A DNA stretch of 63,857 nucleotides, counting the filler, from Folioceros fuciformis (lineage: Eukaryota), in the NCBI GenBank assembly GCA_049999805.1. It is 9 parts of 9 records of this genome, joined end to end, with 100 filler letters (N's around TTAATTAATTAA, not from the genome) between each part and the next. Parts side by side here need not be neighbours in the genome. Positions count along the whole stretch, not along the records: positions 42,476 to 55,206 come from JBNGIO010005343.1; 8 more parts are not named here. One strand, given 5' to 3'. Positions 4,131 to 61,017 of the stretch are shown one piece after another (positions within the stretch are counted from its first letter, which is position 1; each line of letters begins with the position of its first letter). The notes beneath the pieces are model-generated. The model saw only the letters and a list, made by a program, of their open reading frames with translations, had not been told where the DNA came from and ran no database searches. A program made the position numbers and the translations under genes.

Positions 4131-4244
4131 GGTAGGTACGTGGTTGGGAGAGTTGACTAGTGTAGGGGAGCGATAGACGTAGCTGACCAAGCTCAGAGGG
4201 GAGCGATTCCAGGGAAACCTACAACGACCGTGGGATTGATGTGG

Positions 4245-21705: not shown

Positions 21706-22421
21706 ATTACTGCGCTGTTCATTTTGTCGCCTATGTTCAAAGATTATTCAATAACTCACATAACAAAATGAAAATTGTGGTTAAAATAAAATATAGTCTA
21801 TTAGACAACTCATACAAAGGGAATATGAAGTTAAAAATGTAACTGCGGTTATTGAAGCTGAAGGTGCATTTGATAGCTCATTCAACAAAGGAACCTAGGA
21901 TTAGACCTGTAACTAAAATTACCATATTTCAAGATTATGGGACTGGACATGTAACTTAAGCTAATATAACTCAAGATTCATTCCAAAGGGTATATGAAGT
22001 TCGAAATAGAATAGAATATAATTGAAAATATATTTAAAATATTATTTATATATATAAGTAAATAAATAAATAATGACCATGCAACATAGGATGATACATA
22101 TACATCTATCCCAAGACAAACTTACACGGCAGTTTTGGAATTTCCCCGATTGCATTCCTGATCATCTTTGCATTCTTGAGCATCTTTGTGCCTCGGTGTT
22201 GTTTTTGCTTGTGATACACGTAGCGGTTTAGGCCCACTTGGAGAGGTCGTATACAAATACAAATAAAGCGGACATTTTAGACAGAGAATTGTCACAAGGA
22301 TGCAACACGCTTGCCGTTCCCGACCAAAGAGACAAACACACACGTTGGAGCTTGGGCATGGCTCTTCACCAAACGCAAATACACGACGTCTGTTACAGAG
22401 CGCCTAAATCCAATCACACCG

Positions 22422-25400: not shown

Positions 25401-25724
25401 TGGCATACTCTTCTGGGTGCGTGTCAAAAGTGCAGCAACGTGGAGGTTGGACTCCATGCTTTTGCTGAGGCAATTAAGCTAGACAAGAGAGATGCTGCAG
25501 CATATGTGTTGATGTCAAACATATACACTGGTGCCCAGATGTGGGAGCAAGCACAGGAGATGCAGGAGAGGAGAGCAGAAATTGGGGCATGGAAGGAGCC
25601 AGGCCAGAGCTGGTGGATAGACATGGATGGGATCTTGCATAGTTTTTTGGTTGCCAACAAGGAACATCCAGAACGTAGTCATGTTTTGACGTCCTTCACC
25701 AGTATGTCCACAGTTCATGGATAG
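22422..25724 (+). CDS. PLS-class PPR protein (about 26 PPR motifs, E1, E2, truncated WW-type DYW N-terminus); probable organellar RNA-editing specificity factor
   Basis: Intronless ORF: L-S + 7x(P-L-S) + P2-L2-S2 + E1 (PNAAVWHTLLGAC) + E2 (AAAYVLMSNIY) + KEPGQSWWID. No HxE/CxxC. First in-frame ATG is 22422; the true start is uncertain. Confidence 0.93.
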   Translation: MAWPFQDHQSCHVRWPLITFNRLAIGASTTLFACCCSAAMPQRAGLDMHMGLRVADARKSAVYEMCLSFGAVKKLCDQGQLIEAVEALGVLVRRDSAVSQSLFYSVLKKCVVYKDLGLGRRVHALAVKAGYETDTFLCNHIVRMYASHARLQEAMDVFTRVAQPDAFMWSSIITAHVNRGQAKQGVELYHWMRESGVKPDGHVFVAALQACARGADLETGQQLHADVLASDVERDAFICNSLLDMYAKCGSLDDARRLFDGLAQKTVVMWTTLIAGYAQQGMGCEALRLYEAMQEEGMPASPVTFVCLLQACAGVGTPAMEQGKQLHAQIIERGFEGDVFVANGLIDMYAKCGSLEDAQGVFDGLGERNVVTWNAMIGGYSQQGMGQVALDLYRSMQEEGKIAPDAVTFMCLLQACAGVGTPALETGKQFHTQIRELGLQAHVFVANSLVDMYAKCGSVEVARDVFNGLSEKTVVTWNAMMGGYVQQGMGQKALDLYSLMQEEGMIAPNPVTFVCLLQSCANVGAPALETGKQLHARIGEQTLQSDVFVANSLVDMYAKCGGIEDARGVFDRLGHTNVVMWTTLISGYSQRGMGEEALHLYRAMQEEGLVAPNSVTFACLLQACASEGSLSFEKGKQLHAEITEQGLLADVFVANSLINMYTKCGSLDDAHGVFDRLDQKNVVTWNVMIGGYSHQGMGQEALRLYRAMQEEGICAPDYVTFACILQACSSVGSQALEKGKQLHAQIRERGLQADVVVGGSLVNMYAKCGSLKDAEIVFDGLAEKNVVTWTSLIAGYSQQGMGHEALRLYRAMGAEGMVPPDSVTFVCLLHACASVAALHVGRQLHAQIKVKGLQDDVTVGNSLINMYAKSGSMVDAQEVFDALPERDIMTWSSLVAGYTSKGDSEQVFDLVLKMEEDGIQPDGVTFLSVLTVCSHTGLVNEGQYHFEAMNKQYGINPTVEHYTCIVDLLGRAGRLAESLALVQAMPVPPNAAVWHTLLGACQKCSNVEVGLHAFAEAIKLDKRDAAAYVLMSNIYTGAQMWEQAQEMQERRAEIGAWKEPGQSWWIDMDGILHSFLVANKEHPERSHVLTSFTSMSTVHG

Positions 25725-25947: not shown

Positions 25948-27106
25948 TCACGACAGTAAACTATTGCAAGTTCGCTTTGTCTGGGAATTCGCTACCCCCA
26001 GGTTTAAAGTTCCTTCCGGAAGAGCCCCTTGACAGTCACCTTCTCGCTGTGACCATACAAACCCTTCAATTTTGGCGCAAAGCTGTGCCAGCCATACATG
26101 AATACTTGCACTCTCCGGATGTCTCGTGTCTCCAACCCAAAAGCTGTGCACCAGTCCGTCTACGTCTGCCCACCAGCTCTGACCTGGTTGCTTCCATGCG
26201 CCCGTTTCTGTTCTCCTGGTCTGCATCTCCTCTGCTTGCTCCCACATCTGCGCGCCAGTGTATATGTTCGCCATCAACACGTACGCCGCAGCATCTTTTT
26301 CATCTATCTTTAATGCCTCGCCAAATGCATATTGTCCCACCTCTACGTTGCCACACTTTTGACAAGCGCCCAACAGAGCATGCCACACCGCAGCATTGGG
26401 TGGTACAGGCATCGTCCTTACCAAGGCCAGTGACTCGTCCAGGCGGCCTGCCCGACCGACTAGATCCACCATGCATGCGTAGTGCTCCATTGTCGGGGTG
26501 ATGCAATAGTCTACAGTCATTGCATCAAATAACCTTCGTCCCTTGTCTACCAGACCTGTATGACTACATACCGTTAGTACACTAAGGAAAGTGATGCTGT
26601 CTGGCTGTATATCATCTTCTTTCATTCTGCGAAGCAAGCCAAAGACCTGCTCGCTATCTCCTTGGCGGGTGTATCCAGCAATGAGGGCACTCCAGGTGAC
26701 AACAGTTCTTTCGGGCATCGCATCAAATACCTGCTGGGCGTCTACCATGCTCCCCGATTTTGCATACATGTTGATCAAACTGTTTCCTACCGTGATATCA
26801 GTTTGCAGCCCCTGATCTTCAACCTGTGCATGAAGTTGCCTTCCCACATTCAACGCTGCCACGCTTGCACATGCCTGCAGGAGGCACACAAATGTACCAG
26901 AATCAGGTGCAACAATGCTTTCGTCTTGCATCACCCTGTGAAGCTGCAGGGCCTCTTGTCCCATGCCCTGCTGAGAATATCCTCCTATCATGGCATTCCA
27001 CGTCACGACATTTTTCACAGCCAGGGTGTCAAACACACGTTTGGCGTCCTCGAGGCTGCCACACTTGGCATACATGTCTACCAAGCTGTTTGCTACAAAC
27101 AAATCC
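25948..27106 (-). CDS. Second PLS-class PPR-E protein with WW-type PG box, 5' truncated by gap
   Basis: S-P-L-S-P2-L2-S2-E1-E2 followed by KQPGQSWWADVDG; no deaminase motif. Confidence 0.92.
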
Positions 27107-27206
27107 NNNNNNNNNNNNNNNNNNNNNNNNNNNNNNNNNNNNNNNNNNNNTTAATTAATTAANNNNNNNNNNNNNNNNNNNNNNNNNNNNNNNNNNNNNN
27201 NNNNNN

Positions 27207-28976: not shown

Positions 28977-30796
28977 CTATTGCTTCATCCTGCGGTCATG
29001 CCATTCCTTCCTCCTAGTCTGCATCTCCTGCATTGTTTCCAAAGCTTTTTCCATGTCTTCAGTGTGTTTAATGAAACTAACGAGGCGCTCCAACTGACTC
29101 TCCTCCACTGTCATCCGATTCATGTTTTGAACACGTGGGGTTAACACTTCAAACTCCACAGGCATCACCGGGTGATGGCCATAAGTAAGATAGTAAGGAG
29201 TTTTCTGGGTGGTGACCCTCTTTGCAATTTGGTACGCCCACAGCGCCAAATGGATCTTGAGATCCCAATCATAAGAATACTCCACTGTCATCTTGTTCAG
29301 TATTCGACACAAAAGACCATTCGCTTTCTCTGTCAGCCCATTCACCTTCGGATTGTAGGGGGTAGTTCGCCTGTGCTGCACATTGAAATGGTCCGCCAGA
29401 TGGGTGATTACCTCATTGACAAAGTGGGTACCCCGGTCACTTACCAACTCCAGCGGACAGCCATACCGAGCAATTGCTTACTCGAACAGAAATTTCGCGA
29501 CCACATGCGCAGTGTCCACTTGCAGGGGCTGCGCCTCCACCATCCTTGTGCAGTAATCCGTCGCAACTAGAATGTATTTATTCTGCCGGACTCGAGTCTT
29601 TGGCTGGATCGGTCCCACAAAATCGATTCCCCACTTCCCGAAGGGTGCCAAAGTCAGAATCGGCACCAACGGCCATTGCGTCGACGGGGTAGGCTTCCCC
29701 ACCCACTGGCAGGCATCACATTTTTTCACGTACTGTGCTGTATCTTTGTACATCGTGGGCCACCAGTATCCCGCCTCCAGGATCTTCCTGCAAGTAATAT
29801 GTGCTGCGAAATGGCCACCTGCCTCCCCGTCGTGCAGGCCCCTCAGCACTTGCTCAATCCTCTCTCCTGTTATCCATAGACGTTGACATCCATCTGGTCC
29901 CGTTCGATACAGCTCCCCTCTGCTGCGGGTGAAAGATCGAGTGTAGTGCACCCAAGCTTGCCCCCGCTGCCCTCGATACATCAGTAGGAATGACCCCCGA
30001 CTCCATGAATTCCGCTACTTCCAAATAGGTGGGCCGAATAATCTTGATCCTCCCCTTCTCGTTTCCCGCTACTCCACCATTCTGCTGGCGCTTACGATTG
30101 GGCACAGCCGCTTCACCCTCGATTTCTGTTGTGAACAGAGTTTCATCTGGAAACTCATCCTCTTGATCCCGGCTTACCTCCTCCGACTGTAGTCGCGAGA
30201 GGTAGTCGGCGTTGACGTGCTTGCGCCCCTCGCGGGTCTCCACTGTAAAGGTGAGCTCCTGCAACAGCAAAACCCACCTGGCTATCCTTCCTGACAGATC
30301 TACCTTGTTCACCCAATGCTTTAGCGCGAAATGATCCACATGGAACACGAATTCGTAGGATAGCAGATAATGCCAAAATTTCCAGACTGAATACACCATT
30401 CCCAGGGCTTCCCGTTCCGTGGTCGAGTATTTCCGTTCTGCCACTGTCAGTTGTCGCCCCGCATAATAAATCAGGTGGTCCCTCTTCTTCTCATCTCTTT
30501 GGCTGAGCACGACTCCGATGGCAAAGGCTGAGACATCGACATATACGTGGAATTTCTTGCTCCAATCGGGTCCTTTGAGCGTTGGGGCAGTTACAAGCGT
30601 CCTGAAACGCATCCTCCCGTGCTGACGTCCACACCCATTCCTCATTCTTCCTCAACAAATTGGTCAACGGCGCTGCTCTTTTAGCGAAGTTCTTGATGAA
30701 CCTCCTGTAGTATCCGACCATCCCAAGAAATCCCCTCAGCTCCTTTAGTGTGGTCGGTGGTCGGAGTGCTTTAATGATCTTTACTTTGTCAGGATC
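28977..30796 (-). mobile_element. Gypsy (Athila/Tat-like) pol: RT end, RNase H, integrase; degenerate
   Basis: GYYRRFIKNF, YSTTEREAL, GRIARWVLLLQE, GHF...GYWWPT...CDAC, WGIDFVGP, SDRGTHF and YNPKVNG, in RT-RH-INT order. Confidence 0.93.
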
Positions 30797-32632: not shown

Positions 32633-33922
32633 TGATGGTTACTTGTAGGTATGGTCTGTGTTCTCTTAATGTTTTCATGGATTGCAATAACACATCGCAG
32701 TTGCAAAGTCGAAATGATGATTGTCTGCCTTGAGTGGTCACTTTAAACCCTGTACACTCAGCTAAAACACTTCATTAAACCTTGTACATTGAGTGGCAAG
32801 GAGGCTTGCGAACCCTTGTACACTAAGCAGCTAGAGGCCTATAAACCCTAAAATGGGGAATATGCTGTAAAGATCTAGTTGGGTGCCGGTGGTGGAAAAT
32901 CCTAGAAAGAGAATATTATGTAAAGATCTAACCCTAGCGAAGATAAACATATATGATAATTTTGTAGAGTCTGAACTGAAAACCAAGAGGTTTACTCTTG
33001 TTTCCTGAAATATATATGTGTTGTGGTGTTTTTTCCATGTCCCCTTTGCTGCCGATATCGGTTTGTTAGGTTTGCCGAAAGGGACAAGAAAAAAATGGGC
33101 GTGAGAACAAAATATTGGTGAAGATACCGAAGGAAAAACCATTCAAAAACGTATAGAGAGAGAGTGTCCCTTTGGCATGGCATAATGGAGCATACACATC
33201 AGCAACGTGTATACTGTACATCTTTTGAAGTAACGAGGTTCACTTTGTGTAGGTTCACCCAAACCGTGTCGGCAGTCTACTCCCAACGACCTCGACAACC
33301 CCTCAGTCAAACGGTCAACTCGTTTTGTTCTTGCGGGCGGCAGCGAAGGAGCCGCGAGCACAGTGACGTGCCTGGATGAGGCAGCAGCACGTGCCGGCAG
33401 AGGCTCAAGTATTAGTACACACCTACATACTGTATAGTACTTGTACATACAGTAGGCAGAGAGGCCACTACATATTTCGTTTGTTGTCGGATTCTGAAGA
33501 TGTGCACTGTGTTTGCGCACTCCCAATACGGTGTTGACGGGTCAGCCTGTCTTTGAAGCTCGTGACCCGCTCTCCCCTTTCCCGTCGCCTTCCTTACCGA
33601 AAAGGCTGCTGCTCGGAACCGGGGGCTTCCTGCCTGCTGCTCGTTGTCTCTCTGGGTTTGCTGCCCACTTCACGTTTTGAGTGTAGTTTGGTGGCACAAC
33701 CTTGTGCTCGCAGGCCGGCGTTCTCCTGCAGGCGGCTACGACGGAGCAATGGGTGCACTCCAGCTGAAAGAATTGTGGAGGTAGTACGATGGATGGATTT
33801 CAGCATGAACCAGCGAGAATTCAGTTGGCACAGTTTGTGGGACGCCTTGTGGGTGGAAGTGTTACTATGATCTCACAGGGTTAGCTGTAAGGATTGTACA
33901 GGAGGAGGGCACCTGTGATGAC

Positions 33923-35224
33923 ATGACGCTCGTTGTGGAATTGTTGCCCATCGGGGCACTCCTGGCTATGGTCACCACGACAATGCTGGAGACTGCCCTG
34001 GCAGCTCAGGATGTGTTGATTGAGAAGGAGAGTTTCGAATGCTTGGCTAGGTACCTGCAAGACGTGCAGCCTGTGCTGGCGGAGATGACTCGACGAAATA
34101 TTGAAGAGTCCAGTGCTACCAGGCTGGCCCTGGACTCCTTGAAGGAGGATATCGCGAAGGCAAACAAGCTCATCAATTACTGCAAGACCACGTCCCGGTT
34201 TTACCTGTTTTTCAAGTGCATGAAAATTGTGAAGCAGCTGCAGGCAGTGACTCGTGACATTGGGCGGTCCTTGGAGCTGCTGGGAGTTGCCATTGCAGAA
34301 GTGTCGGTAGACATCAGGGATAACGTGGTGAGACTCCAGAACGAGATGATGGCTGCTGAGTTTGAGACTTCGGATTCTCGGAAGCGAGTACTGGAAAAAC
34401 TGAATCGCGGTCTTCAGCAGCAGCTGAGGGACCAGAGGTTTGCCGATGACCTCCTCCGGGATATCGCAATGGCTGTCGGTGTGCCCGTGAATGACTCGAG
34501 CATTCAGCAAGAGCTTGCCAGCTTCAAGAGGGAGAAGGAGGAGGCTACGGAGAGGAAGGAGCAGGCGGAGGAGGCGTTCATGGAGNNNNNNNNNNNNNNN
34601 NNNNNNNNNNNNNNNNNNNNNNNNNNNNNNNNNNNNNNNNNNNNNNNNNNNNNNNNNNNNNNNNNNNNNNNNNNNNNNNNNNNNNTTATTGCTCTGCTTT
34701 CGTGGAGTGATGCGGCCAAGGGGCTGCAAGATGCCAGTATCACGTACCCGCCTAGGGACCAGAATCCTATACCAGTGTTTGACTCTTTCATTTGTCCGTT
34801 GAAGCACGACGTCATGGAGGATCCCGTGCTTGTTGCTACAGGCCAGACATATGAACGAGAGCAGATTGAGCGATGGTTCGCCGAAGGGCATACCAAGGAT
34901 CCCGTGACTGGTCAGGAGCTGCCGAACTTAGAGCTGAGGCCAAACCGTCCTCTTCGCCATTCAATCGAGGAATGGAAGGAGCGCAACTTCTGGCTGAGCA
35001 TCGACAAGGCAAAGCAGGCTCTGGAAGGAGGGGATACCTCGAAACAGGTGGCGGCTCTACATGATCTTCAGCAACTTTGTGAAGATGACAGTAGAAATAA
35101 GGTCAGGATCGCTAGTCGAGGAGTACTAGCTGACATCGTCAGACTGCAGGCACACAGCCGTGATGTCAAGACCGAGTGTTTGTCGGCAGTGTCGGCAATT
35201 GTGCGCGACCACGATAGCAACAAA
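33923..35224 (+). CDS. U-box/ARM-repeat E3 ubiquitin ligase (PUB43/44-like), first coding exon; spans a 100-N gap
   Basis: N-terminal helical domain (SRFYL..KC..IV..LQ..TRDIGRSL), U-box SFICPL..DVMEDPV....GQTYERE.IE.WF..GH..DPVT, first ARM repeat; GT donor at 35225. Confidence 0.88.
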
Positions 35225-35394
35225 GTGAGCGGCTCATCCCAGCAGTGATGACTACTGTACTGGTAGTCTCCACTCAATCTCGTATTTTAAGACTGTTGGG
35301 TACCATGCTGAGTTTGTGTATGGAGCTGCTGGGTGAGCTCGGTTTCCGGTGTGTTTGGTAGTCGTAGCTTACACCCTGCTTTCTCTGTGGGCAG

Positions 35395-42375: not shown

Positions 42376-44168
42376 NNNNNNNNNNNNNNNNNNNNNNNNN
42401 NNNNNNNNNNNNNNNNNNNTTAATTAATTAANNNNNNNNNNNNNNNNNNNNNNNNNNNNNNNNNNNNNNNNNNNNCAGATACCTACTCTGATCACGACGA
42501 AGTCACGGAGTGGAAGGTGGAAAAAAGGGGATGGAAACAAACACTCTAAGACTTGGCTAGGCAGAGCTCGGAAGGAAAACCATAAGGTGGAGAGGTAGTC
42601 CCATACCCTTTGCACTTAAGTGGCGAGTCATTATACAGGTCACGAACGCTTGGTCCAGAAAAACACTATTAAGGTGGAATCTTCTTAGGACGACTTGTCA
42701 ATAACCTAAAATTGTCGTGTTGTGCCACTCAACATCGCACTCATCATGGTTCATTAGTTAACCATACTCACACCACACCACATTACACACACATTAAACA
42801 CTACATGATGGTGCCGTAAGCTTGTAAGAGTTGAAGCATTTGCTTCCTTCAGACACCAAAAAATGCACCTGCACCCACACTTCTCAGAGCTGTAACTTGG
42901 CTTCTCAAGTCCTCGATCAGGTCACATAATCTTGCACACTCCGCACACGCACACCTCAACCGGATTCCAACAAGAGAATGCTCCCTCAAGTGAAAGCCTA
43001 TTCCCAGAATGCAAGAGAATACAAGCTTACAGCTGCAGCAGACACCACTGAGCTAGGCTTTTATGCCTGCTACCTCAGACTTCCTGCAGCCACATCCACA
43101 CATTAGTTGTGTGTCTATCTAGTTGACTTTATATTATATTATATTTTCCAATCATCTCCACTAAATAATTATTAATTACCACTAATGCCATCATTTATTA
43201 GCATCACTTAATTATTGACTAATTACTATTTGCATGCATCTAAGTGACAGCACACAATGATGCTTGACAAAACTCCGGCAATCCACCTAGTTGGGCGAAG
43301 TGTTAATGAGAGGCTTACGTGGGTACCTCTGTTAACGGTGCCGAACGTGGGCTCATGATGGCTAGTGGCGGTGATGTGGGTCCTGCCAATGATCCTTCTC
43401 TGCTTGTTGTAATGTGTGGGGTCAGGACCAGCTCAGGTACTAGATCCACCAAAGGAGAGACCTCCAACCTAGGAGTGGGTTGAGCATGAGAAGGGTTGGT
43501 CGGACTGGTTAGAGTTGTGGGGGGTCCGAGAGAGGGTGTAGTCGGGCCTTCGTCAGCAGTCAGGACTGCCTGCACAGTTTCCTTAAGCACTCAAAGTACT
43601 TCCCCATGGTAGAAGGTGAAGCCATCATTGGTCTGCTAGATGGCATCAGTGACCATCCTCCGTAGGGTCCTGTACTCCAGCCTCCAGAAGGTCTGCATGT
43701 TGTCTTGCGGCCAACTCTACGTACCTATAGGGACAAAGGTGGCTCGGATCTCTTCCTTAAGATGAAGGGTGGTGATGGCTTCCGACTAGTTTCAGAGTAG
43801 TCCAACCTTAGCATCAACGTTCCACTACTCCAATTTGCTTATCCGCATTCGTAACTCCTCGTTCTCAACCCGGAGCTTCTTCGCCCGGTCCATTAGCACC
43901 TTCCGTTTGCCGTCCCACAGCTACCCATGACCCTGCATGTTATCTCGCAAGAGGCCTATCTCTGCCCAATGCGTCCAAACCTCATGTTGTGTTGTCTTTG
44001 CCTCCGCTTGGACACCCCGGAGTTTGCCCATGAGGTCCTCTATCTGCCGGAGCACCTTTGTAGCCTTCCGGGTGAGCTCCTTTTCAGTGTCTACAGCTCT
44101 ATTCCGCTCCCTCTAGTAGCAGTCACAGTCAGCGGTGTGTTGCTTGTATGCCCCCTAGAGGTCTACCT

Positions 44169-44652
44169 TGAAAGGATCAATAGAGTAGTATGGTAAAGGA
44201 GAGGAGAGAAGAAGGGAGGAGGAGAGGAGAGGAGAAAGAGAGGTCTCACAGTGTCTCTCAGCTCTGTTGCAAAGGGAGCTCAAGAGGGTATTTATACCCT
44301 CTAGAAAAGCTCCCAAGGAAGCTTCGCAAGAAGCTCACAGGAAGCTATGCAGGAAGCTTCCTAAAGATTAGATTAAGCTAATGATACTTAATTAAACACT
44401 AATCTTAGACTAATTACATTAGTCTAATTAAACTTATCACACTAGTTTAATTAGACTAATCACATTAATCTAATTAGACTAATCACATTAGTTTAATTAG
44501 ACTAATCACATTAGTTTAATTAGACTAATGTAATTAGTTTAATTAGACTAATGTAANNNNNNNNNNTGTAATTAGTTTAATTAGACTAATGTAATTAGTT
44601 TAATTAGACTAATCACATTAGTCTAAGCACATTGGGCTTTAATAACCCTACA
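44169..44652 (-). mobile_element. Solo LTR of family A with TSD TACCT
   Basis: TACCT at 44164-44168 and 44653-44657; no PBS or PPT adjacent; internal AT-rich tandem expansion. Confidence 0.88.
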
Positions 44653-45599
44653 TACCTCTCACTGCATCTAGACCGCACGCTCTTCAGCATGCGCGACCTC
44701 CATGATGGCTCCCTGTGTCTCCCGTAGTTGATCCCGCTTAGTCTGCTCCTCGAGCCGCCTAGAGAGGTCTTCTAGCTACTCTGCGCTCCGGGTCTTGAAG
44801 TCCCACAACTCCTTTATATAGCCGTCCTGCTCCTCCCGTAGCGTTTTAGTCTTCATTACCCACCACTGTAATAGAAAGGGATGGCTCCTTTGCTAAGGAA
44901 TCTACCTCTTCAACCTATGCAATCCAAAAGGGCTGGTTCTCAACGTCCCTCTCACAAGGCATAGCAATCATGTCTCCTTGTTTGAGTTCAGCTACATTTC
45001 CACTCAATCTCGCCACTTCCACCTCTATTGTGCCAATGGGTTGATAGTGACCAATATACATATGTCTAGCGTCAGCTTGGGTTTGTGCTTTCACATGTTC
45101 ATCATGTGCTATGTTGCTTTCGTCTGCGAAAATCTGAGTTGCATTGTCTTCCCTACTGAACCATACCCATGGACTATCCAGATTACGCTCCTCCCAATTG
45201 ATTGATTTTCTGCACGATACTTTCTTATGTCATCCAGAAAGCCTGCCACCACTCCTTGTCCTTGTGGCTAAGGTATCTATCCATTAGTTGCTCAACGACT
45301 TTTTGGATCTACGCCAAGGATACAAATGGGCTTGAATATTGTTGCTTCCCATGAATTTGAAGTAGACATTGTGTCCCATCGATGATTGGAGTCATTGGTA
45401 TCTAGTGCAAAAATTCCAAACCCTCCACTGGTTCCCGCTGCCCTGATGTTGAAAGTTGCTTGCCTCAAAGAACAATCACTAGCGCCCCTCCCCACCGCTC
45501 CTCCCTTGTAATTTTGAATTGATGTTGGTAACTATGATTGTGCAGGTTGCATATTACAGCATCATTGTGACCACGCTTGCCCATCCCATTTGGCCAGAC

Positions 45600-46030
45600 G
45601 AATCCTCTGAAATCAGCTACCTACATCACAATTTTCACATCTACGTTGGGCGTATATGCTTGGTTGATGAGCTTCAACATAGTTTCTAGTGAAAGAGCCT
45701 TCTTATGCTTCAAGACCTTAGAAAAACTAGACAACATTTGGTCAACGACATCATGAGTATGATCGACGAGCAGAAACCCTATCTTCACTTTGTCACATAT
45801 TTGTTTTTCCACCAGCATATACAGATATGCAAACAACAGGATGTTCTTGTTCTCGCGAGCAGTGTTGTCCACTTGTGGTAAAAAGTCTTCGGCGAAAACC
45901 CTCCGTATGCAGAAATCACATCCTGTATTACGTGGATTACTAAGTTCACATCGTTCGTGTATTTAGAAAGTTTACGTAAACCTTTGTCCACATGCCTGTA
46001 TTGTAGACAAGACACCCAACCACATGAACG
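45600..46030 (-). pseudogene. Sola-like (DUF7869-type) DDE transposase remnant
   Basis: DNTARENKN..LFAYL..LV......VKIGFLLVDHTHDVVDQMLS matches the DN..RENKN...FL.VGHTH..IDQ.FS pattern. Confidence 0.65.
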
Positions 46031-46053
46031 CAAATGAGACCCCTTAGCAAAAT

Positions 46054-46480
46054 TGTGGTGGCAAAACCCCAAGCAATTGTTTGCCAAAGGGTTCAACCTT
46101 TAGTGTCCACACTTATCCCATTGTTGTTGAGACATTGGGTTTCGTTCCCACAAAGGAGCAATGGGGTTCCTCGCTGCTATGGATGGAGGGTCGGCCTCAA
46201 TCAACTCAATGAGAGATTCGAGGGCTCCCCTCTAGCTCTGATCAAGCGTGAGGCACTCCTCACTGTCCATCAGTCGACTGCACCTTTCGGTGCCCACAAA
46301 TTCACTCCAAGCACTACAACGACACTAACCTCTCAGGTTTGCGACTTCCCTTACTCACTCACTCACTCACTCACTCACTCACTCACTCACTCACTCACTN
46401 NNNNNNNNNCTCACTCACTCACTCACTCACTCACTCACTCACTCACTCACTCACTCCAGCACTACCAACAACACCACTAC
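46054..46480. repeat. Dispersed repeat (probable LTR terminus, family C) with (CACT)n microsatellite at about 46352-46455
   Basis: Starts TGTGG and aligns with 63525-63857. Confidence 0.7.
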
Positions 46481-49400
46481 CTTTTACACTTCCCTATTGA
46501 CTCCCCCATTCGGCAAGAGCCACTAAACTAACCCCAAAGAAGAGTGTGCCGCCACCCACGATCCTACCGGACACCATGCAAGCATGGTCGGCACTCACTC
46601 CAGTCCTACAAAGAAATAAGAATGACATATCATGGGGCACAACATGGAGAGCACAATCAAGAATTAAAGGGACCCAGCCCTTAACCCTGGCCACTACTTC
46701 TTAAAGCTTTACAGACGCTGCACAACATGCACAGCCAGCACACTCTTGTATCCAAGTAGGAACAGCCCGCAAGAGATCGTGAAGTGACAAGTGGGTTGTA
46801 GAGGCTCATAGTCTCTTATAGAGGACTCCTAGCTCTAGTCCCCTTCCTCTCTCTACAGGTTGCCCATTAGGACACGACAAGCAAGACAATAGTTTATAGC
46901 ACACCATTATTGTAGACTACTCTACCCTACCATCAACTTGACGAGCCACCACCCCCTCGTCCCTACCAACAGCCTTTGCTGATCCTTGGCTGTTGTCCTC
47001 TCTTCTAGACTTGGTGGGCGTCGCCTTCTTATTGTTGAGGCAAAGGCTTCTCCTACCATTGTTCCCATGACGGTGAGGTTGCCTCCAAGCCGACTTCACT
47101 CCTTCAGCATCTCCCCTAACGGTTCCCATAGTGGCTGACACACAGCCCTCATGGGAGGAGCACTTGTCAGTTTGTTAGTTTAGTCCTGAAGGGATGTTCT
47201 ATAGGGCCAAAGGACAGTAGGTCAGACCCACTCGAGACGTGTTAGTAGCAAGAAGAACACAACAAAAGATGTTAATGGAGAGGTTGCAGAAGGTGAACTC
47301 CTGCTAAAGTGGGTTAGGGTAGCAAACATGCATTCATTACATCCAACCAACGACCTCAAGGGATAGTTGACCACTAGACTGTCAAATAGTCCTGAGACGG
47401 AAGGCCCTTGGTGTTAGTATGAACAGTGGGAGAAGAAAGGGGAGAGATCAGAAGAGTGATCAACAGCCGGAACCGGGCTTGAAATCAGTAGTTTATTCAG
47501 CAGAATCGGCTTCTAGCCGAAACGGTTCCTCGGCTATTGAAAACTAATCCCGAGGTGTTGGAACAATTCTCGGACTATCAGGGGAAGGAAACAGGTGAGA
47601 AAGAGTAGAGTCGGAAATTTTGGAATTAAATACAGAAAAATAGAAAATAGAAATTATGGGGAAATTGTGAAAATCCTAATAGTAGGATTGCATCTAATCT
47701 TGCATGATCATCTAATCTAGCATGATCAAGACGCCATGCTCAGAAAGATATTTTGTGTTTTTAATCTGCGGAAGGTGTATACAGAGTGTGTCTTAAATAG
47801 TGTCACTGAGTGTCTCTTCCGAAGAGGCACACCCGTTTGTAATTATTAAACACTATCACTTATGGTCTATGGTAACTAGCTGGTCGGCAGGGTTACGGAT
47901 AGATTATCCATTCCGTAACACTCCCTCTTAAGCTGAACGTAACCTGACCAGTGGTGGAGGCTATCTCCCATGGAGCGTGACACTCCTCTTTGGTGCGCTC
48001 CCTCTGAAGGCTAATGAGAGCATGTACAAGCCATCTTGAGGCACGGCACTAAAGAGGCACAAGTCAGGATTTGTGGTCCTGAAAAAGTAGCATGACTCCT
48101 TTGAAGCAAGCATCTTAAGATCGCCTTGCTTTAGCAACTGAGTCATGGAGACTAGGTTCTTGCCCATCTGTGGGACTAAGAGCACAGGCTTCAAGGTAAG
48201 CAGCGAACCATCCTCAAGGGGAAATTCGCAAGTGCCTTGTCCCATGATTGGCAAGCTGGATCTACTTTGTTCGTCATTGAGTAATACCCTTTCCCTGAGA
48301 GGACGAGTATCCAGCTTGGTGAATAGAGTACGATCGCTGCATATGTGGACGGTGGCTCCACTGTCCAGATACCACCCCACATCTTGATGCAACTTGGTGT
48401 TGAGGCAGACCATAAGTATCTTTACGATGTTTGTCTCCGCTGTGCTGGCGTTCCCCTTAACTGCAATACTGGTTGCTTATTCTCAGGTCAGCCTTCTGCA
48501 GCTCTCCGGCCTCTTTCTTGCGGCACTCTCGTGCCCAATGGCCAGCAACTCCGCACCAATTGTAGTTTCCAGCTCGACGAGTAGGGGCAGAGGTTGAGTC
48601 ACCTTTAGGGGTGACGTTCACCTTGCCCTTCGAATTCCTCCCGGGTTTGAAGCGGGTGGAAAACGCCCTGTCTGCCTCGAGCTTGGACCCTCCTGTAGAA
48701 TTAAGACGGCTCTGCTCCTATTGATATAGAGCGCCTATGATGTCCTCCACCATCAAGGTGGGAGTCATGCCTGACTTACAGTGGGTAGATACCAACATCA
48801 GGTTGGTAACAAAGTTTTGGTAAGAGGCTGGTAAGCTCATCAACAGTTGTGCAGCAGCATCGGTCTCCGACATGGTGGAGCCAAGGGAGGCGAGCTGCCC
48901 TCGTAGTTGTCTGAACTTCGAGGTATGAGTAGAGATCGTATCTGTCTCCTTCATCCTTAAGGAGTTGAATTCCTGCCTTACACTATACAAGGTTAGAACA
49001 TTGTTAACATTGTACGTGTTCGATAGTTGGTTGCAGATTGCAGAGGCCTCCGTGAGGAAATCCACGCTGGGCACTAGACTCGAGTCAAGCCCGCTGACGA
49101 GGAGAGCAATTGCAATCCCATTCAAATAGTCCCATCTCTCAACAACAGTGGCAAAAGGGTCGGGCTTCGGAAGGGTGCCATCAACGATCTTCCAAATGCC
49201 TCAACCTATCAAGATGGACTTCATGCACACGCGCCACACTGGGAAGTGCTAGCCGTTGAACCAATCTTTTTCCTTCATATGATCGGTGTAGACGGGGCCT
49301 GCACCTGTGAAGGTGGATGAAGTGCTACTTGCCATAGCTGTTGGGGAGTCTAACAAGTGAGTTAAACTGTTGTATCATGTGGTCCACAAAGGAATTGGAG

Positions 49401-49984
49401 GTTGTGGTCATAAACTCGGGTGCTTAGGACCACTCAGTGTCCGACTAGTCAGGAATTTGCAAGCTATCCACTTCTGATTTTGCTATACGACGAAGGCGAA
49501 AGACTAGGTCCACCAAACACTGAGTTGTGTGCTCGAGCTAATCCCGCAGAAGAAAAGTTTGATCTGCAAATGCCGAAGATTCCGGTTGTAGGATAGGCGC
49601 AGCTGGCTCAATCTTCACTTACACATCTACTAGTGGTGGTTCAAAACTCCCAGGGTCCAAATGCTAGTGTGAAATGGCGCTTGGGAGAACCGGTTTGGAA
49701 CCGATCCCCGAAAAAGCCGTGTTCACACTGGTTGGGGCNNNNNNNNNNNNNNNNNNNNNNNNNNNNNNNNNNNNNNNNNNNNNNNNNNNNNNNNNNNNNN
49801 NNNNNNNNNNNNNNNNNNNNNNNNNNNNNNNNNNNNNNGGTTGGGGCGGCCCGTACCGAATCAACACCGAAATGACAACTTAAGTTGCCACCTCGTTGGC
49901 GGGGCAACGATTCGCCTGCGAAATGTTTCGGCCCGGGCACAGATTCGCAAGCACCCGCCCGCCCGCTCGCGCGCCACTTTGTGG

Positions 49985-50230
49985 GCACATCGGCCTCCGC
50001 GATGGCGTGCTGATCATCGGCGCGCGATGGCACTGGCCTCCGCGATGGCGTGCTAATCATCGGCTCACGATGGCACTGGCCTCCGCGATGGCGCACTGAT
50101 CATCAGCGTGCGATGGCACCGGCCACCGCAATGGCGCGCTGATGATCGGTGCGCAATGGCACCGGCCTCCGCGATGGCGCGCTGATGATCAGCACGCGAT
50201 GGCACCGGCCTCTGCGATGGCGCGATGGCA
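49985..50230. repeat. GC-rich tandem repeat of about 43 bp
   Basis: GGCCTCCGCGATGGCGYGCTGATCATC...GATGGCAC recurs 5-6 times. Confidence 0.8.
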
Positions 50231-51110
50231 GCGCCTGTGGTAGGCTGCGATGTTGATCGGCTGCGGGTGAAGATCCCCCAAGCCCAGGCGTCTCCTCCTG
50301 TTGTAAATTTGCTTCAGAGCTGCCCAATTTCTAATCGAAATTCGTAGTGAATTGGCCGTCATCCTACAATCCGACATATGCACTCAATTCCTCCTCATAN
50401 NNNNNNNNNNNNNNNNNNNNNNNNNNNNNNNNNNNNNNNNNNNNNNNNNNNNNNNNNNNNNNNNNNNNNNNNNNNNNNNNNNNNNNNNNNNNNNNNNNNA
50501 CAGCCCAGGCGCACTGCCGCAGCGATCCCTCTCCCGGGTCAGCTTGTCCAATCCCGGAAGAAAAGAAATCAGCAGTTGTGTAGCCCGCCAGCTGCCTCGG
50601 AGGAGGGAAATAGGGGTGAGTGGCTGCAATTCCTGTTGGAATTGCTGTTGCTCGTTGTCTCTTTCGTCTGGAGCGACGGTGAGTGGCAACCACAAATTGG
50701 AAGTGGGCACAGGGGCGCGCTGGCCTAGGCATGCACTCCTTCGAGGGTCGGGGGAAACTGGTGCCAGATCTTGTTGTCCTCGCGGTGCGCCTGCTTGGGA
50801 AGTCTGCATTCTAGTCGCGAAGGGAAGGAGAGGCACCGCACCTCTCCCCTTGTTGTTTTTAAAGTTCATTTGGACTTCTTTATGGTCATATTTGCAGGCT
50901 TGCAACTAACATGCAAGCTGCGAAAACGGGAGGGGTTAGCTAGGCTCCCATCAAACCTTCGGGATTAAGCACCCCTGCCCTGGATGAGGGCTTGGATAGG
51001 GGACCTGTATGAGTACTTGATACTTTCTTTTTATTTTAGAATCATTCATGCTTTGATTCCATGTGATCATCTAATCTAGCATAATCAAGACATCATGCTC
51101 AAAAAGATAT

Positions 51111-51440
51111 TTCGTCTTTTTAATCTACAGAAGGTGTATACAGAGTGTCTTAAATAGTGTCATTGGGTATCTCTTCCGAAGAAGCACACGTGTTCGTCTT
51201 TTTAATTTGCAGAAGGTGTATATAGAGTGTCTTAAATAGTGTCATTGGGTGTGTCTTCCGAAGAAGCACACCTGTTCGTCTTTTTAATCTATGGAAGGTG
51301 TATACAGAGTGTCTTAAATAGTGTCATTGGGTGTCTCTTCCGAAGAAGCACACCTGTTCGTCTTTTTAATCTGCGGAAGGTGTATACAGAGTGTCTTAAA
51401 TAGTGTCATTGGGTGTCTCTTCCAAAGAAGCACACCTGTT
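51111..51440. repeat. About 82-bp tandem repeat x4 inside the 5' LTR
   Basis: TTCGTCTTTTTAATCT...GAAGGTGTATACAGAGTGTCTTAAATAGTGTCATTGGG...GAAGCACAC; present only once in the 3' LTR. Confidence 0.88.
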
Positions 51441-52746
51441 CATAATTATTAAACTCTATTAATTACGGTCTCTTCCGAAGAGGCACACTTGTTCGTAATT
51501 ATTAAACACTATTAATTACGGTGTATGGTAATTAGCTGGTTGGCAGGGTTACGGGCAAATTATCCAATCCAAAACAGAAATTAAGAAAAAAGAATATATG
51601 GGAATATGAATGCCGTATATGTATTCAATACGTATCAAATACATTGGGGGGGAGGAGTTGGTGTGTGTGTGTGTGTGCGCTGGCCTAGATAGCGGGAGAT
51701 CACTAGTCGGCGCTCCTCAATCCTGCAGCGCGGGCTGCGGATCAAGCCTGCATGAGCAGAATCGGGACAGGGCAGATGGGAGATGAGAAGGCCGGCAAGG
51801 CTAAGGGACATGGAGGAAGGGTGCAGGGAAGGGACAACAGTGGGGGTAGGCATGGTGATGGGAAATCGGCGTGGGGAGTGGATCGGGGAGGAAATCAGGA
51901 CACACGGGAGGGGAGATGGGAAAGAGATCAGGGAGGAGATGGGGTTGCAGCTGGCCTTGCAATGGTTGGCAAGAACCGGGCTAGCCGAGAAATCAAAAGA
52001 AACAAGGCAGGGGGCGTTGGAGGATGGGATCAGGATGGCAAGGCTTGTAGAGCGGCCGAGATCGGAATGGTGGGGATGGATTGGGTCAAGAAGTCAATCG
52101 GCCATGTCGCTGCTGGTCCCTGTAGCACCCAAATCCTTCAGCTTGGCTCCAGCTCCTCTAGTGTGTACATTTAATCCCAACACTCAAGGATCCGTCCTCG
52201 TACATGCAGCTTGGATCCAAGAAGGAAATGGGGCAAACAAATTGAGAAGGAAGGGGGAAAAGAGGAAGCGGGGAAAGGAAAATGTAGGAGAAGGGAGGAA
52301 GGGAGGGAGAGGAATAGGAAAGGGAGCGACCGCAATTCTGCCCTAGCTAGGGTGTAGCCCTTATGGCCGTTCAGTCAATCGTGCAACCCTTTTAGCCAGC
52401 CACAACCAGACCACCCCGACATATCCCCATATTCCCTCTCCTAGGTTCAAACAATTATTTTATTATTTTATTATTTAATCACCAAATCTAAAGTCAACCT
52501 TCCTGACCCTATGGTCGGGTACTACTTTTCCATGTCTAGGACCAAACCTATACCCACTCTAATAACCAAACCAATTATTTACTGGTTAATTAATTTAATT
52601 AGCCCAAGGAAAAATAAGAAAAATGACCAGAAAATAAAGAAAATTTAGGGAAAGTAATTAGAAAAAGAAAGCCAAACCATACCACTATCAACCCTTTTTG
52701 ACCAAAATAGACAACTATCCCAAACTTTGGAGGTTCATATATGTAG

Positions 52747-53688
52747 ACCCTGAAACAAGCTGAGCAGTACAAAGAGAAGATACTTCCGGAATGCTTCTAA
52801 GAGAATGCAAACGCAGCTAGGAATTGGAAAGAAGTGAAAGACCTTCAGTGTGAACTCGCAAAGGAGGACTATGATGCTAAATTATCGACATTCAAAGTAC
52901 TAAGCAGCAAGCAGAAAGTGAAGTACCATGTGATGACTGGTGATTTGCGAGAAATGGAGGGGTACTTGGGCAGGCGGGAATATAAACTACTCATCTTAGA
53001 TCTTCCATGGGGAAACTATTGCGACGCAAGGGACAAGGAGGTTTGCGTAGAAGACCTGGAAAAAATAATGGAAGGTGTTTAAAAAATTACTGAGAGTCAG
53101 ACCTTTTGGGTAATATGCATGCACAAGCCAGGTCAAATACAAGTCATGAGAGATGGGCTGCAGAAGTGGTGCATGAATGGTCTGGGACAAGGTCTGTGAA
53201 TTCATGACAGTTGGTTATGGTATTCATCCAATGATTGGGATTCAACCCTAAACCCTAAACCCTAAAGCAATGCTCTCAGTAATAGTGCAGCCAAAGACAT
53301 TGGAGCGATGCCTAGGATCATAAAGCACACCGTTGTCATCAAGAAACTATTGAACGTATCCAATGACATGCGAGTTGTCAATCCCTATCAAACGCCGCTT
53401 GGTTTAATGGTGCTCCTTTTTGGGCTCTTTAGCGATAGAGGTGAATGGGTGATTGATGGGTGTGCCGAAAGCAGAAGTAGAGTGCTTGCCGCACTTTTGG
53501 AAGGGCGAAACTCTATAGCCATCAACTTAGACCAATGGCACACTATCTTTATCGAGTGGAGAATAACTGGGCACGAAGTGTTTCCATCGGATGAGGAGGA
53601 GTTGATGACCAAGCTGCATAATAGGGGCCACTCTGTATTCTTTTCTCACAAGTTTGTAAGCAGAAGGTCGGTTAGACCAAGAGCTTAG
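52747..53688 (+). pseudogene. Decayed beta-class N6-adenine/N4-cytosine DNA methyltransferase-like gene
   Basis: GDLRE...YKLLILDLPWG (motif IV-like, DLPW at 52999-53010), then VNPYQTP..LM..LF.LFS..GEWVIDGCAESRS..AALLEGRNSIAINLD (motifs X, I, II). In-frame stops at 52798, 53080, 53197 and 53263. Confidence 0.7.
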
Positions 53689-53914
53689 ACCCTACAAATG
53701 GTCCAAGGGAACACTGCACCTTTGGATTGTCTAGAACTCAGCCAATCTCAAGGGCACGCATTGAAGAAGAGCAAGGGGAAAGGAAACAAGAGAGTGAACA
53801 CTGAAGGTCAAGACACAAGAAAGGGACTGGAGGAACAACCTGGTGATAAGCCATGGGTGCCAGACCATATTGAGACCATATTGAAATAATTTGCAATCTT
53901 AGTTAACTATAGAA

Positions 53915-54400
53915 ATTAAAAGTGGATACATTTTTTTTTCTAGTAATTCCCCTTATTTCTAGGAGGAGCAATAATGGGGATGTGAATCTCTTGTATAACA
54001 CCAACCACCTATGGAAGACCTTGCAATTCAAGAAACTCCACTGCATATGCAATCATGTTTCTCTTTCCAAGCCACGTGATGTAGATATCATGCAACTCAG
54101 AAACCAAGGCTTTACAAAATTCAAAAATAGTATTACAAACTACAATTTTTTTTTGTATCCATACATAGCAATTGCTAACAGTTTGAAGAATCTCTCTAGT
54201 GGCCAACCTCTTTGAGGGTCATAAGAACTCTTGCATCCACAAAGACGGCTTTTCGAAACGTGGTATCTTACTTAAACAACAAAGAGTCAATTTCAGCATA
54301 CAAATACTAAAAGGTGTCTTCATGAACTCACTAATTATTTCTCAACCTCTCATCTTTATAAGACTCAAGGAGCAATTGATATGTGAATCATTGGTTTCCT
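53915..54400 (-). pseudogene. PIF/Harbinger transposase remnant (N-terminal half)
   Basis: Minus strand reads ...DTTFRKAVFVDARVLMTLKRLATREIL...EFCKAL...LQGLP*VVGVIQEIHIPIIAPP, like the F...G+P.V+G.IDG.HIPI.AP of DDE_Tnp_4. Confidence 0.7.
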
Positions 54401-54989
54401 TTTACACAACAAGTTTATCTTTGTTTTCTTTTTCTACTTTTGGACTTAATAACGTTTGGGGAGAAAGGTTTCGCCAACCAAAAGAGATTTCAGCAAAAAT
54501 CTATATAATTTCTTTTTATTTTTATTTTTTTTGGTCTTTTTGTAAATCCTTGATACCATCTTTTACTGATTTCGGTATAGGAACATATCGGTGCATTCAA
54601 GTATGTGCCAAGACCCCATGGGCATGCACTTGTCCACACTAGGAATTGGCTAGTAGGCACTGCTATGTACCAAGATTTGGCTGGCACGCCCTCTACACAC
54701 CAAGAGTAGCTTTGCAGGCCTAACTTTGTGCTAAGAGCCTACTAAGTGCCAAAGTGTACACTAGGAGCCAATTAGCTCACTTAAGTGCACATCCAGTTGT
54801 TGCGCACTAGTCTTAAAAAAATATGGAAAAAAAAGAAGCAAAATCCCCATTTTTCAAGTAGTGGCACGACCAAGTGCGAGCTCAAAAAAATATTTTAAGT
54901 TTTCTTTCTATCTTAATTTTTTTAATTCATTATTTTTCTTGAAGATTATTATTTTTATCATTTTTAACTCTTTCTACACACCTATGTAG

Positions 54990-55206
54990 TGAAGGACCGC
55001 TAGAGGAGCCACATGGTGAAGGAGGAGAGGAGAAAAGAGAGATCACACTCTCATACAGAGTCTCAATAGCAAGGGAACTCAAGGGGGTATTTATACCCTC
55101 TAGAAAAGCTCCCTAGGAAGCTTCTTACGCAACTTCCTACAGATTAGCTTAAGCTAATGTAAACTAATGGTACTTAACTAGACACTAATCTTAGACTAAA
55201 CACATT
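54990..55206 (-). repeat. Partial LTR, family A
   Basis: Matches 269-530. Confidence 0.88.
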
Positions 55207-55306
55207 NNNNNNNNNNNNNNNNNNNNNNNNNNNNNNNNNNNNNNNNNNNNTTAATTAATTAANNNNNNNNNNNNNNNNNNNNNNNNNNNNNNNNNNNNNN
55301 NNNNNN

Positions 55307-58454: not shown

Positions 58455-58554
58455 NNNNNNNNNNNNNNNNNNNNNNNNNNNNNNNNNNNNNNNNNNNNTT
58501 AATTAATTAANNNNNNNNNNNNNNNNNNNNNNNNNNNNNNNNNNNNNNNNNNNN

Positions 58555-60564: not shown

Positions 60565-61017
60565 NNNNNNNNNNNNNNNNNNNNNNNNNNNNNNNNNNNN
60601 NNNNNNNNTTAATTAATTAANNNNNNNNNNNNNNNNNNNNNNNNNNNNNNNNNNNNNNNNNNNNACTACAAAGTAATTGAAGGCACGAAACCCGAAGCGT
60701 CAGGCCATCATGGTCATGTCTTTGTTTGCATCATGTTAAGCTCAAAGTCACCGTGGTGTCCATGATCTGAGCTCTAATAACAGAGTACCTAGCCGTAATG
60801 CATGCCATTCCGAATCACTATAATCTCACTGCAGCATAACTGTAACTATTTGTATTCCAGCTGTATACAACACAAATACCTTGCGCGAGTTACTTGACAA
60901 CGCCTTATACCTCACAATGCGTATCAAGTTACATTGCATGGTTGCTTGTGTTTTGAGAGGACAGCATAGCAGTGCGCATTGAAAGCAAGCTTCGTAGTTC
61001 ACGCTCCATAGTGCACG

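Follow-up and report, generated by a model that had tools for sequence, protein, structure and literature searches.

Why should the nuclear DNA of a plant hold a reading frame with the motifs of a bacterial amino-DNA methyltransferase, and from what kind of gene did it derive? The question is raised by a window of 63,857 nucleotides (filler included) from Folioceros fuciformis, by which we mean the whole stretch analysed: nine parts of nine records of assembly GCA_049999805.1, joined end to end with 100 filler letters between each part and the next, positions 42,476 to 55,206 coming from JBNGIO010005343.1. A first-pass annotation, made from the sequence alone, had placed at 52747..53688 a dead beta-class methyltransferase of prokaryotic type, with the catalytic motif ahead of the one that binds S-adenosylmethionine (SAM), in a region of plant transposable elements. 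With high confidence, we interpret the locus as a dead copy, without introns, of a plant gene of the nucleus, whose parent belongs to a streptophyte clade of beta-class SAM-dependent amino-methyltransferases lying nearest to the phage and bacterial enzymes of the Pfam family PF01555 (N6_N4_Mtase).

Translation of 52747-53888 recovered in frame 1 all four motif strings that the annotation had listed, in the order it gave and interrupted by the four internal stops that it counted. Frame and stops stand, and the interval has to be extended: the open reading frame (ORF) runs on the plus strand from an ATG at 52741 to a TAA at 53887-53889 (52741..53889), as delineated by translation, tblastn, phmmer and paralogous contigs. 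The TAG at 53686..53688 lies in the variable C-terminal tail; behind it the same frame is open to the TAA at 53887-53889, and the paralogous contigs stay alike to around position 53876, so that we count this TAG as a fifth premature stop rather than as the end of the gene. The other four are a TAA at 52798..52800, in a conserved N-terminal stretch 'PE.F.(Q/E/H)' (ILPECF-stop-EN, aligned with YPEAFVQH and LPSTFQEH), a TAA at 53080..53082, at a conserved aligned position within an F-x-x-x-T block, a TGA at 53197..53199, and a TAA at 53263..53265, inside a (CCCTAAA)3 repeat; two of the stops thus sit at well-aligned conserved positions. A further TAG at 52744..52746 directly follows the candidate ATG (SYM-stop-TLKQAEQ in the frame-1 translation of the upstream end) and is premature if 52741 is indeed the start; the homology of the relatives begins around residue 10 of the frame as first annotated. 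The five or six premature in-frame stops comprise all three kinds of stop codon, and an alternative genetic code therefore cannot rescue the frame. The window contains a single copy, and the tblastn matches of 41 family proteins to it all fall in one frame, between 52753 and 53667, with no frameshift and no intron-like break.

The motifs themselves, all on the plus strand, combine a well-preserved order with a clear loss of critical residues. The motif IV equivalent, DLPWG (52999..53013, residue 85 of the frame, within ILDLPWG), corresponds to D-[ILVAF]-P-[YHRC]-G in the family, and is followed by NPYQTP (53380..53397, within VNPYQTP), which by translation and motif comparison is a degenerate form of the family's NPYQKP and takes the place of HPTQKP in phage and bacterial enzymes. 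The motif I equivalent, the glycine loop that binds SAM, reads DGCAESRS (53455..53478, residue 237, within WVIDGCAESRS) where P0001 and P0002, two of the closest relatives, have DGCSGSGS, and the motif II-like strand reads GRNSIAINLD (53503..53532) against GRNV.AVE.D. The circularly permuted order, with motif IV N-terminal and motif I C-terminal, is found in the pseudogene and in every full-length relative. By comparison with the family consensus, (G/E)DWV(L/I)D(L/G)C-S-G-S-G-(T/S) at the SAM loop and GRN-V-x-A-V-E/D after it, the GCAESRS of the pseudogene has lost both glycines of GSG, and QKP has become QTP. The glycine-rich loop of motif I (F/D-x-G-x-G) is absent from this copy and present in its relatives, and its loss therefore reflects decay of the copy rather than exclusion from the family by descent. 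The three closest relatives, P0001-P0003, carry DLPRG at motif IV, and the tryptophan of DLPWG is probably a secondary change from arginine, for which a single step from CGG or AGG to TGG would suffice. A plant-telomere-type repeat, (CCCTAAA)3, at 53246..53266 occupies the place of some 20-25 residues of the relatives (an R-L-x4-E-x2-T-I-G block); the window has one match to this 21-mer and 100 shuffles have none, the alignment to the relatives has a gap there, and one paralogous contig fails to align across 53172-53263. Judged by these changes, the copy is a pseudogene that can neither bind SAM nor be translated.

The identity of the parent family emerges from homology searches. With the read-through peptide as query (X at the stops), phmmer retrieved 37 matches at E ≤ 1e-3 from 1,835,955,588 representative proteins, 6 of these reaching E ≤ 1e-10 and not one E ≤ 1e-30; P0001, the best relative, scored E 1.9e-23 at 36% identity. 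The alignment of pseudogene and family is collinear over about 290 residues, from an N-terminal 'PE.F..H...A..WK' to a C-terminal 'LP.E.QE'. PF01555 is matched at E ≤ 0.01 by 36 of the 37 relatives, and is the top family in all 36 that match anything at that level; 32 of the 37 reach its gathering score (26.7 bits), and the relative without a match, P0035, is an N-terminal fragment. Among the phage protein families of PHROG, the pseudogene itself matches phrog_18293 (methyltransferase, 3.6e-6) and phrog_3008 (DNA methyltransferase, 1.3e-4), and its relatives match phrog_67 and phrog_498, both labelled 'DNA methyltransferase'. A match of the read-through peptide to DpnI (E 0.024) lay below the cut-off and was judged to be noise.

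We also built a profile (A1) from the pseudogene and 15 relatives. Searched against the PDB at E ≤ 0.01, it matched 12 distinct sequences, all 12 of them beta-class DNA methyltransferases of the N6-adenine or N4-cytosine type (M1.HpyAVI/DpnA at 1.8e-12, CcrM at 8.6e-12, MboIIA, RsrI, TTHA0409, M.BceJIV, rotifer N4CMT and PvuII among them). An AlphaFold model was made of the relative P0028, from a 27-row alignment, and not of the pseudogene; its methyltransferase domain has a predicted local distance difference test score (pLDDT) of about 90, and in a Foldseek comparison with the PDB only beta-class DNA methyltransferases occupy the listed ranks 1-35 (CcrM at 3.7e-13, M1.HpyAVI with a template modelling score of 0.82, rotifer N4CMT at 1.6e-10), METTL3 appearing only from rank 37 (E 3.6e-8). 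It is through these four lines, the relatives, the PHROGs, the PDB profile matches and the fold of P0028, that the reading of a dead prokaryote-type, catalytic-first copy is borne out.

In a maximum-likelihood tree of 25 rows (quick search, branch support from the Shimodaira-Hasegawa-like approximate likelihood ratio test, SH-aLRT, only; two neighbours of phage type and an outgroup of two rows), the 21 rows of eukaryote type fall into a single clade (SH-aLRT 99), sister to a phage-type pair with DLPYG at motif IV. The pseudogene groups with P0001-P0003 (SH-aLRT 96), on an end branch of 1.4 compared with 0.3-0.75 for these three. The phage-type pair consists of P0030 and of an enzyme on L001, a phage-like metagenome contig of 7915 bp, whose ORF 3115-3915 encodes a PF01555 enzyme with the motif CDLPYG; aligned by hhalign, profile A1 and this enzyme match with a probability of 98.7% and E 1.8e-16 over 206 columns, motif IV included. 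L001 carries at least four methyltransferase ORFs in a row, at 3115-3915 (DLPYG), 4109-5029, 5019-5324 and 5325-6143 (TSPPY). Searches for the genomic context of relatives returned little: P0028 as query had no match among metagenome contigs, alignment A3 found only L001 among metagenome contigs and nothing in viral contigs, alignment A6 led to L002 and L003, both distant enzymes of phages, and two scans of IMG/VR yielded only distant phage enzymes with 34-45% identity over about 60 residues. The large ESM-Atlas clusters nearest to P0016 are phage PF01555 clusters, which we treat as a lead only.

Which organisms carry the relatives? Names were looked up for 30 of the 37 relatives, of which 12 bear an organism name and 18 come from Logan, ENA or JGI. 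Adding the cluster member P0041 and two proteins from the A1 profile search to these 12 gives 15 organism-named proteins, and all 15 are from Chara, Riccia, Adiantum or Ginkgo: seven from Adiantum nelumboides, one from Adiantum capillus-veneris, three from Riccia sorocarpa, three from Chara braunii and one from Ginkgo biloba. No angiosperm was found among the organism-named members, starting from a decayed query and with at least five proteins obtained from the A1 profile search (a set of 5.8 billion proteins, best 8000 candidates); absence of the family from angiosperms is only suggested. A further search for closer relatives of P0001 gave only P0002 and P0011. In UniRef, P0007 and P0034 from Riccia, and P0033 and P0043 from Chara, are labelled 'DNA methylase N-4/N-6 domain-containing protein', so a PF01555-type domain has already been recognised in them automatically. 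Several members are complete on contigs of 1.6-2.8 kb, which would fit transcripts.

Proteins of the family have basic N-terminal and acidic C-terminal tails and occur in short and long forms, the latter with about 500 extra N-terminal residues that belong to no known family. The long forms (P0028, P0042, P0043, P0004, P0033) carry a conserved N-terminal domain of about 200 residues and a middle domain; the N-terminal domain recurs in P0028, P0042, P0043, P0044, P0033 (twice), P0023, P0004, P0026 and P0021. The window lacks both domains in all six frames, and the pseudogene therefore belongs to the short form. A likeness of the N-terminal domain to ParB, seen by eye, was not established: Pfam gave nothing for it other than DUF6551 at E 0.019, a PDB profile search gave nothing, its model has a pLDDT of 55 with a best VIA-align Z of 3.9, and a ParB_N cluster ranks 15th for it in the Atlas, which is a language-model lead only. 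P0033 (GBG86584, Chara braunii, 1825 residues) holds two full modules of N-terminal domain plus methyltransferase within one gene model, separated by long low-complexity tracts rich in Ala/Pro and in Glu, and may represent a tandem duplication or two merged genes. In P0041 (Adiantum nelumboides MCO5614432), residues 27-131 match a gypsy-type pol of the window (29130-29912, minus strand) with up to 44% identity, and the fern gene model is a probable chimera, part retrotransposon and part methyltransferase.

How does the family relate to known systems? Like the PF01555 beta-class enzymes CcrM, M1.HpyAVI/DpnA, M.RsrI, M.MboIIA, M.BceJIV and M.PvuII, it has the catalytic loop N-terminal to the SAM loop, and like the bacterial and phage enzymes in general it has a Q-K-P motif, then a D-x-x-x-G-S-G loop, then an R-N-x-I-G/A-V-E/D strand. 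It differs from these enzymes in being nuclear and eukaryotic, in having D-[ILVAF]-P-[YHRC]-G instead of (D/S)PP(Y/F), and NPYQKP instead of HPTQKP. The phage DLPYG subgroup (L001 ORF 3115-3915 and P0030) shares D-L-P-Y-G at motif IV with the family, whereas it keeps HPTQKP and DNC-x-GSGTT, is short, and has about 17% identity to the consensus of the plant profile; the L001 enzyme, moreover, stands beside further methyltransferases in a phage-like contig.

Two horizontally acquired eukaryotic enzymes were also compared. MpDN4MT1a/b of Marchantia polymorpha are described in the preprint text as sperm-specific N4-cytosine DNA methyltransferases with TSPPY that group together with N4-cytosine enzymes of prokaryotes (bioRxiv 10.1101/2021.02.12.428880). 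They resemble the present family as beta-class amino-methyltransferases of prokaryotic type in a land plant, and the family also occurs in a liverwort, Riccia; its organism-named members come only from lineages with swimming sperm, and DN4MT1 is sperm-specific. TSPPY at motif IV is found in 0 of the 45 family proteins inspected, and not in the pseudogene either. Judged by the description of motif IV (D-x-P-Y-G versus TSPPY), the family is a PF01555 lineage other than that of Marchantia DN4MT1. The rotifer N4CMT is, in the text of the reports on it, a horizontally acquired PF01555 enzyme with a C-terminal chromodomain and without eukaryotic homologues (PMC8885841, PMC10406627). Our family profile matches its structures (PDB 8s9m/8s9n/8s9o) at E 4.4e-6, and the P0028 model does so in Foldseek as given above; the motif IV of the rotifer enzyme differs from that of the family, and Pfam scans of 44 relatives revealed no chromodomain.

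The MT-A70 clade (METTL3/METTL14/METTL4) has a likewise permuted order, and its motif IV is DPPW, to which the DLPWG of the pseudogene bears a superficial likeness. Neither the pseudogene nor any relative scanned matches MT-A70 (PF05063), however, and METTL3 ranks under every listed beta-class DNA enzyme in the structural comparison. The best matches are thus not RNA methyltransferases, as the annotation had required for its reading: besides the absence of MT-A70, UPF0020, an RMKL-like domain of RNA methyltransferases, matches only weakly and in no case reaches the gathering score by its own stretch. Iyer et al. (2016) catalogue clades of eukaryotic N6-adenine methyltransferases, with few in land plants, and derive a haptophyte clade from phage ParB-terminase loci; we found in it no streptophyte clade like the present one, and their supporting tables might list it (PMC4738411). 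More generally, we found no description of this streptophyte family in the literature searched, with the proviso that the supplementary figures of the DN4MT1 preprint might contain such proteins.

A possible, although doubtful, account of the whole would see in the pseudogene a relic of an undescribed streptophyte family of phage-derived D-x-P-Y-G enzymes in short forms and in long forms whose conserved N-terminal domain has no known fold. Their acquisition would predate the divergence of Charophyceae from land plants; where sperm are flagellated (Chara, liverworts, ferns, Ginkgo) the genes would have been kept and repeatedly duplicated, and other seed plants would have lost them.

The surroundings of the locus were examined through contigs from public runs, compared with 51600-55200 at 80% likeness or more; the stretch is contained in two DNA runs of one sample, and no RNA run is listed for it, which does not bear on expression. 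Directly adjoining the 5' end of the ORF is a very high-copy repeat (52447..52737, strand not assigned), with a summed word depth of 4e3-5e4, which stops short of the ATG by four bases; in run X4 one contig diverges after 52737, and this run, which we guess to be RNA, covers parts of the repeats only. A second very high-copy repeat (54990..55206, likewise without assigned strand, depth 1.8e4-4.8e4) begins with TGTAGTGAAGG and runs into an N block, with 49 contigs heterogeneous before 54990; its start, TGTAGTGAAGG, resembles the end of a long terminal repeat. Pieces of copia gag and Pol lie on both sides, and the location in plant transposable-element space is in this respect as the annotation had it. 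Two runs supply contigs with 0 differences, over 52725-55019 and 52971-54196, that connect the ORF with the plant repeats; the stops and the telomere-type repeat are therefore present in the reads and were not made by the assembler. The CpG observed/expected ratio of the locus, 0.44, is like that of the adjacent plant DNA.

Copy number was read from the same comparison. The stretch 53899-54866 is single-copy, with a summed depth of about 6-10, whereas depth rises to 16-50 across 52810-53898, the surplus coming from contigs that are 80-90% alike. Such diverged contigs cover 52821-53125 (54 differences), 53264-53609 (40), 53273-53876 (76) and 53336-53875 (95); three of them lose similarity at 53875-53876 and yet continue for 81-264 letters, and the paralogous contigs are alike only within about 52782-53876. 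A few diverged copies are thus present in the same genome, and their likeness does not extend beyond the coding region. For the suggestion that the pseudogene comes from a multicopy or mobile family, these contigs, together with the several gene models in each of Adiantum, Riccia and Chara, lend slight weight to the first alternative; they do not extend to the second. On the seed-free host that the annotation proposed the evidence is neutral, the family including Ginkgo.

Could the methyltransferase nevertheless have travelled as cargo on a mobile element (a transposon, or else a virus that became endogenised), so that the present copy is a decayed insertion spread by transposition? We take this for a serious but rather unlikely explanation. 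It would account for the multiple models per genome in Adiantum nelumboides (7), Riccia (3) and Chara (3), the two whole modules in the Chara P0033 model, the very short branches among the Adiantum copies (0.03-0.19) and the fragmentary state of many models (P0023 and P0026 missing the central part of the domain, P0035 and P0044 truncated), as well as for the similar copies in the sample, with likeness limited to the coding region, and for a location flanked by high-copy repeats and remains of copia elements. In the long forms, the N-terminal domain also falls near eukaryotic hypothetical, fungal DUF3723 and ParB_N clusters, again as a language-model lead only. The window itself, however, shows no transposase, integrase, capsid or packaging gene tied to the ORF, and a repeat search of it found no terminal repeats, nor any inverted or direct repeat pair bracketing the ORF. 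The copy number, at a depth of 16-50, is also low next to the 1e4-5e4 of the flanking repeats, and the IMG/VR scans brought up none but the distant phage enzymes described above. An insertion of a 2.25-kb segment into a single repeat was considered as well, and left unused: the joints, from 52737 to 54989, 54992 or 55171, carry just 23-24 letters on one side.

We return to the reading of a dead copy of a nuclear plant gene and ask what the intact members would do. From their motifs, SAM would be bound at the D-x-C-S-G-S-G loop, and an exocyclic amino group would be methylated by way of the D-x-P-Y-G loop, the predicted target being most likely adenine N6 in DNA and, less so, cytosine N4. The clade may go back to a single ancient event in which the streptophyte lineage acquired the gene from a phage or bacterium, with duplication and frequent decay thereafter.

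That the substrate of the parent family is RNA or protein and not DNA, as with several prokaryotic amino-methyltransferases after their transfer to eukaryotes, seems to us unlikely, even if some features invite the thought. Weak secondary matches to UPF0020, TRM5-TYW2 and Cons_hypoth95 (E 7e-5 to 0.01) stay under the cut-offs, and motif IV is D-[ILV]-P-Y rather than DPPY, resembling the N-[IL]-P-Y of rRNA adenine dimethylases. Phage PF01555 proteins, however, share the DLPYG variant (L001 ORF 3115-3915, and P0030, which scores strongly, with 96.9 bits, on the full profile), so that D-x-P-Y-G falls within the range of PF01555. PF01555 being the top family of all relatives with any match, and DNA methyltransferases accounting for all of the PDB sequence matches and for Foldseek ranks 1-35 as listed, likewise argue for DNA, although Iyer et al. 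argue in the text of their article that functional shifts to RNA have been frequent (PMC4738411).

Several observations weigh against our interpretation. The read-through peptide, scanned with HMMER against Pfam-A and NCBIfam, matched neither PF01555 nor any other methyltransferase family, an outcome that the first-pass annotation had formally named as speaking against its claim. The best relative is no more than 32-36% identical, so that the true parent is absent from the databases searched. At motif IV the sequence departs from the canonical (D/N/S)PP(Y/F/W), its first proline being replaced; the three closest relatives even have an arginine at the aromatic site, and the living DLPRG subfamily may itself not be a conventional enzyme. 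The single transfer is drawn from a small, quickly searched tree with two phage-type neighbours and two outgroup rows, and the DNA-methylating activity of the members is a prediction from sequences and one model. Finally, the runs that confirm the locus are probably of the same sample as the assembly, and hence not independent of it. Chance resemblance in non-coding or transposon sequence, bacterial or phage contamination, or mis-assembly, to which the failed Pfam/NCBIfam scan and the several N blocks near the locus might point, is highly improbable in view of a match at E 1.9e-23 among 1.84e9 proteins that is collinear over the length of the domain, of organism-named relatives that are all streptophytes, of the 0-difference contigs by which two runs, probably of the source sample, link the ORF with plant repeats, and of a CpG ratio as in neighbouring plant DNA.

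As an ordinary pseudogene, the copy itself does nothing, and its value is that of a pointer to an uncharacterised streptophyte family. Apart from Marchantia DN4MT1, no PF01555 gene family of land plants is described in the literature searched. On the doubtful account of a phage-derived family given above, plants would have, besides DN4MT1 and independently of it, a second system of prokaryotic type for DNA amino-methylation, writing N6-methyladenine (6mA) or N4-methylcytosine (4mC), with a possible role in the male germ line or in genome defence. Should intact members be active, the disputed 6mA and 4mC of plants would become testable with defined enzymes in tractable species; should the genes instead be mobile cargo, they would offer a plant case of an element that brings its own DNA-modifying enzyme.

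The window as a whole is plant nuclear DNA with many copia and gypsy fragments. Upstream of the locus lie an ORF fragment matching Pfam DUF7869 (45624-45962, minus strand, E 1e-25), pieces of copia gag, zinc-knuckle and Pol_BBD domains (47964-49200, minus strand), and two tandem arrays, one of 43-bp units at 49945-50266 (about 6-7 copies) and one of 82-bp units at 51029-51520 (about 5-6 copies). N blocks at 55207-55306, 58455-58554 and 60565-60664, and others at 44557, 49739, 50400 and 59882, some with TTAATTAATTAA mid-block, give spurious 'repeats' in the repeat search and are probably gaps or linkers. In run X3, which shares its sample with X1 and X2, the differences are almost solely C>T (164) and G>A (90) changes in strand-wise blocks, a pattern as expected of a bisulfite or enzymatic-conversion library, from which cytosine methylation at the locus could be read. 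Among the genes annotated elsewhere in the window are an intronless pentatricopeptide repeat (PPR) protein with an E motif (22281-25724, plus strand, 1147 residues), a second intronless PPR-E gene lying tail to tail with it (25948-27150, minus strand), and a U-box gene (33809-35248, strand not given), whose ORF is 52% identical to its best matches, 42% or less to organism-named proteins of angiosperms, and 37% to one of Ginkgo.

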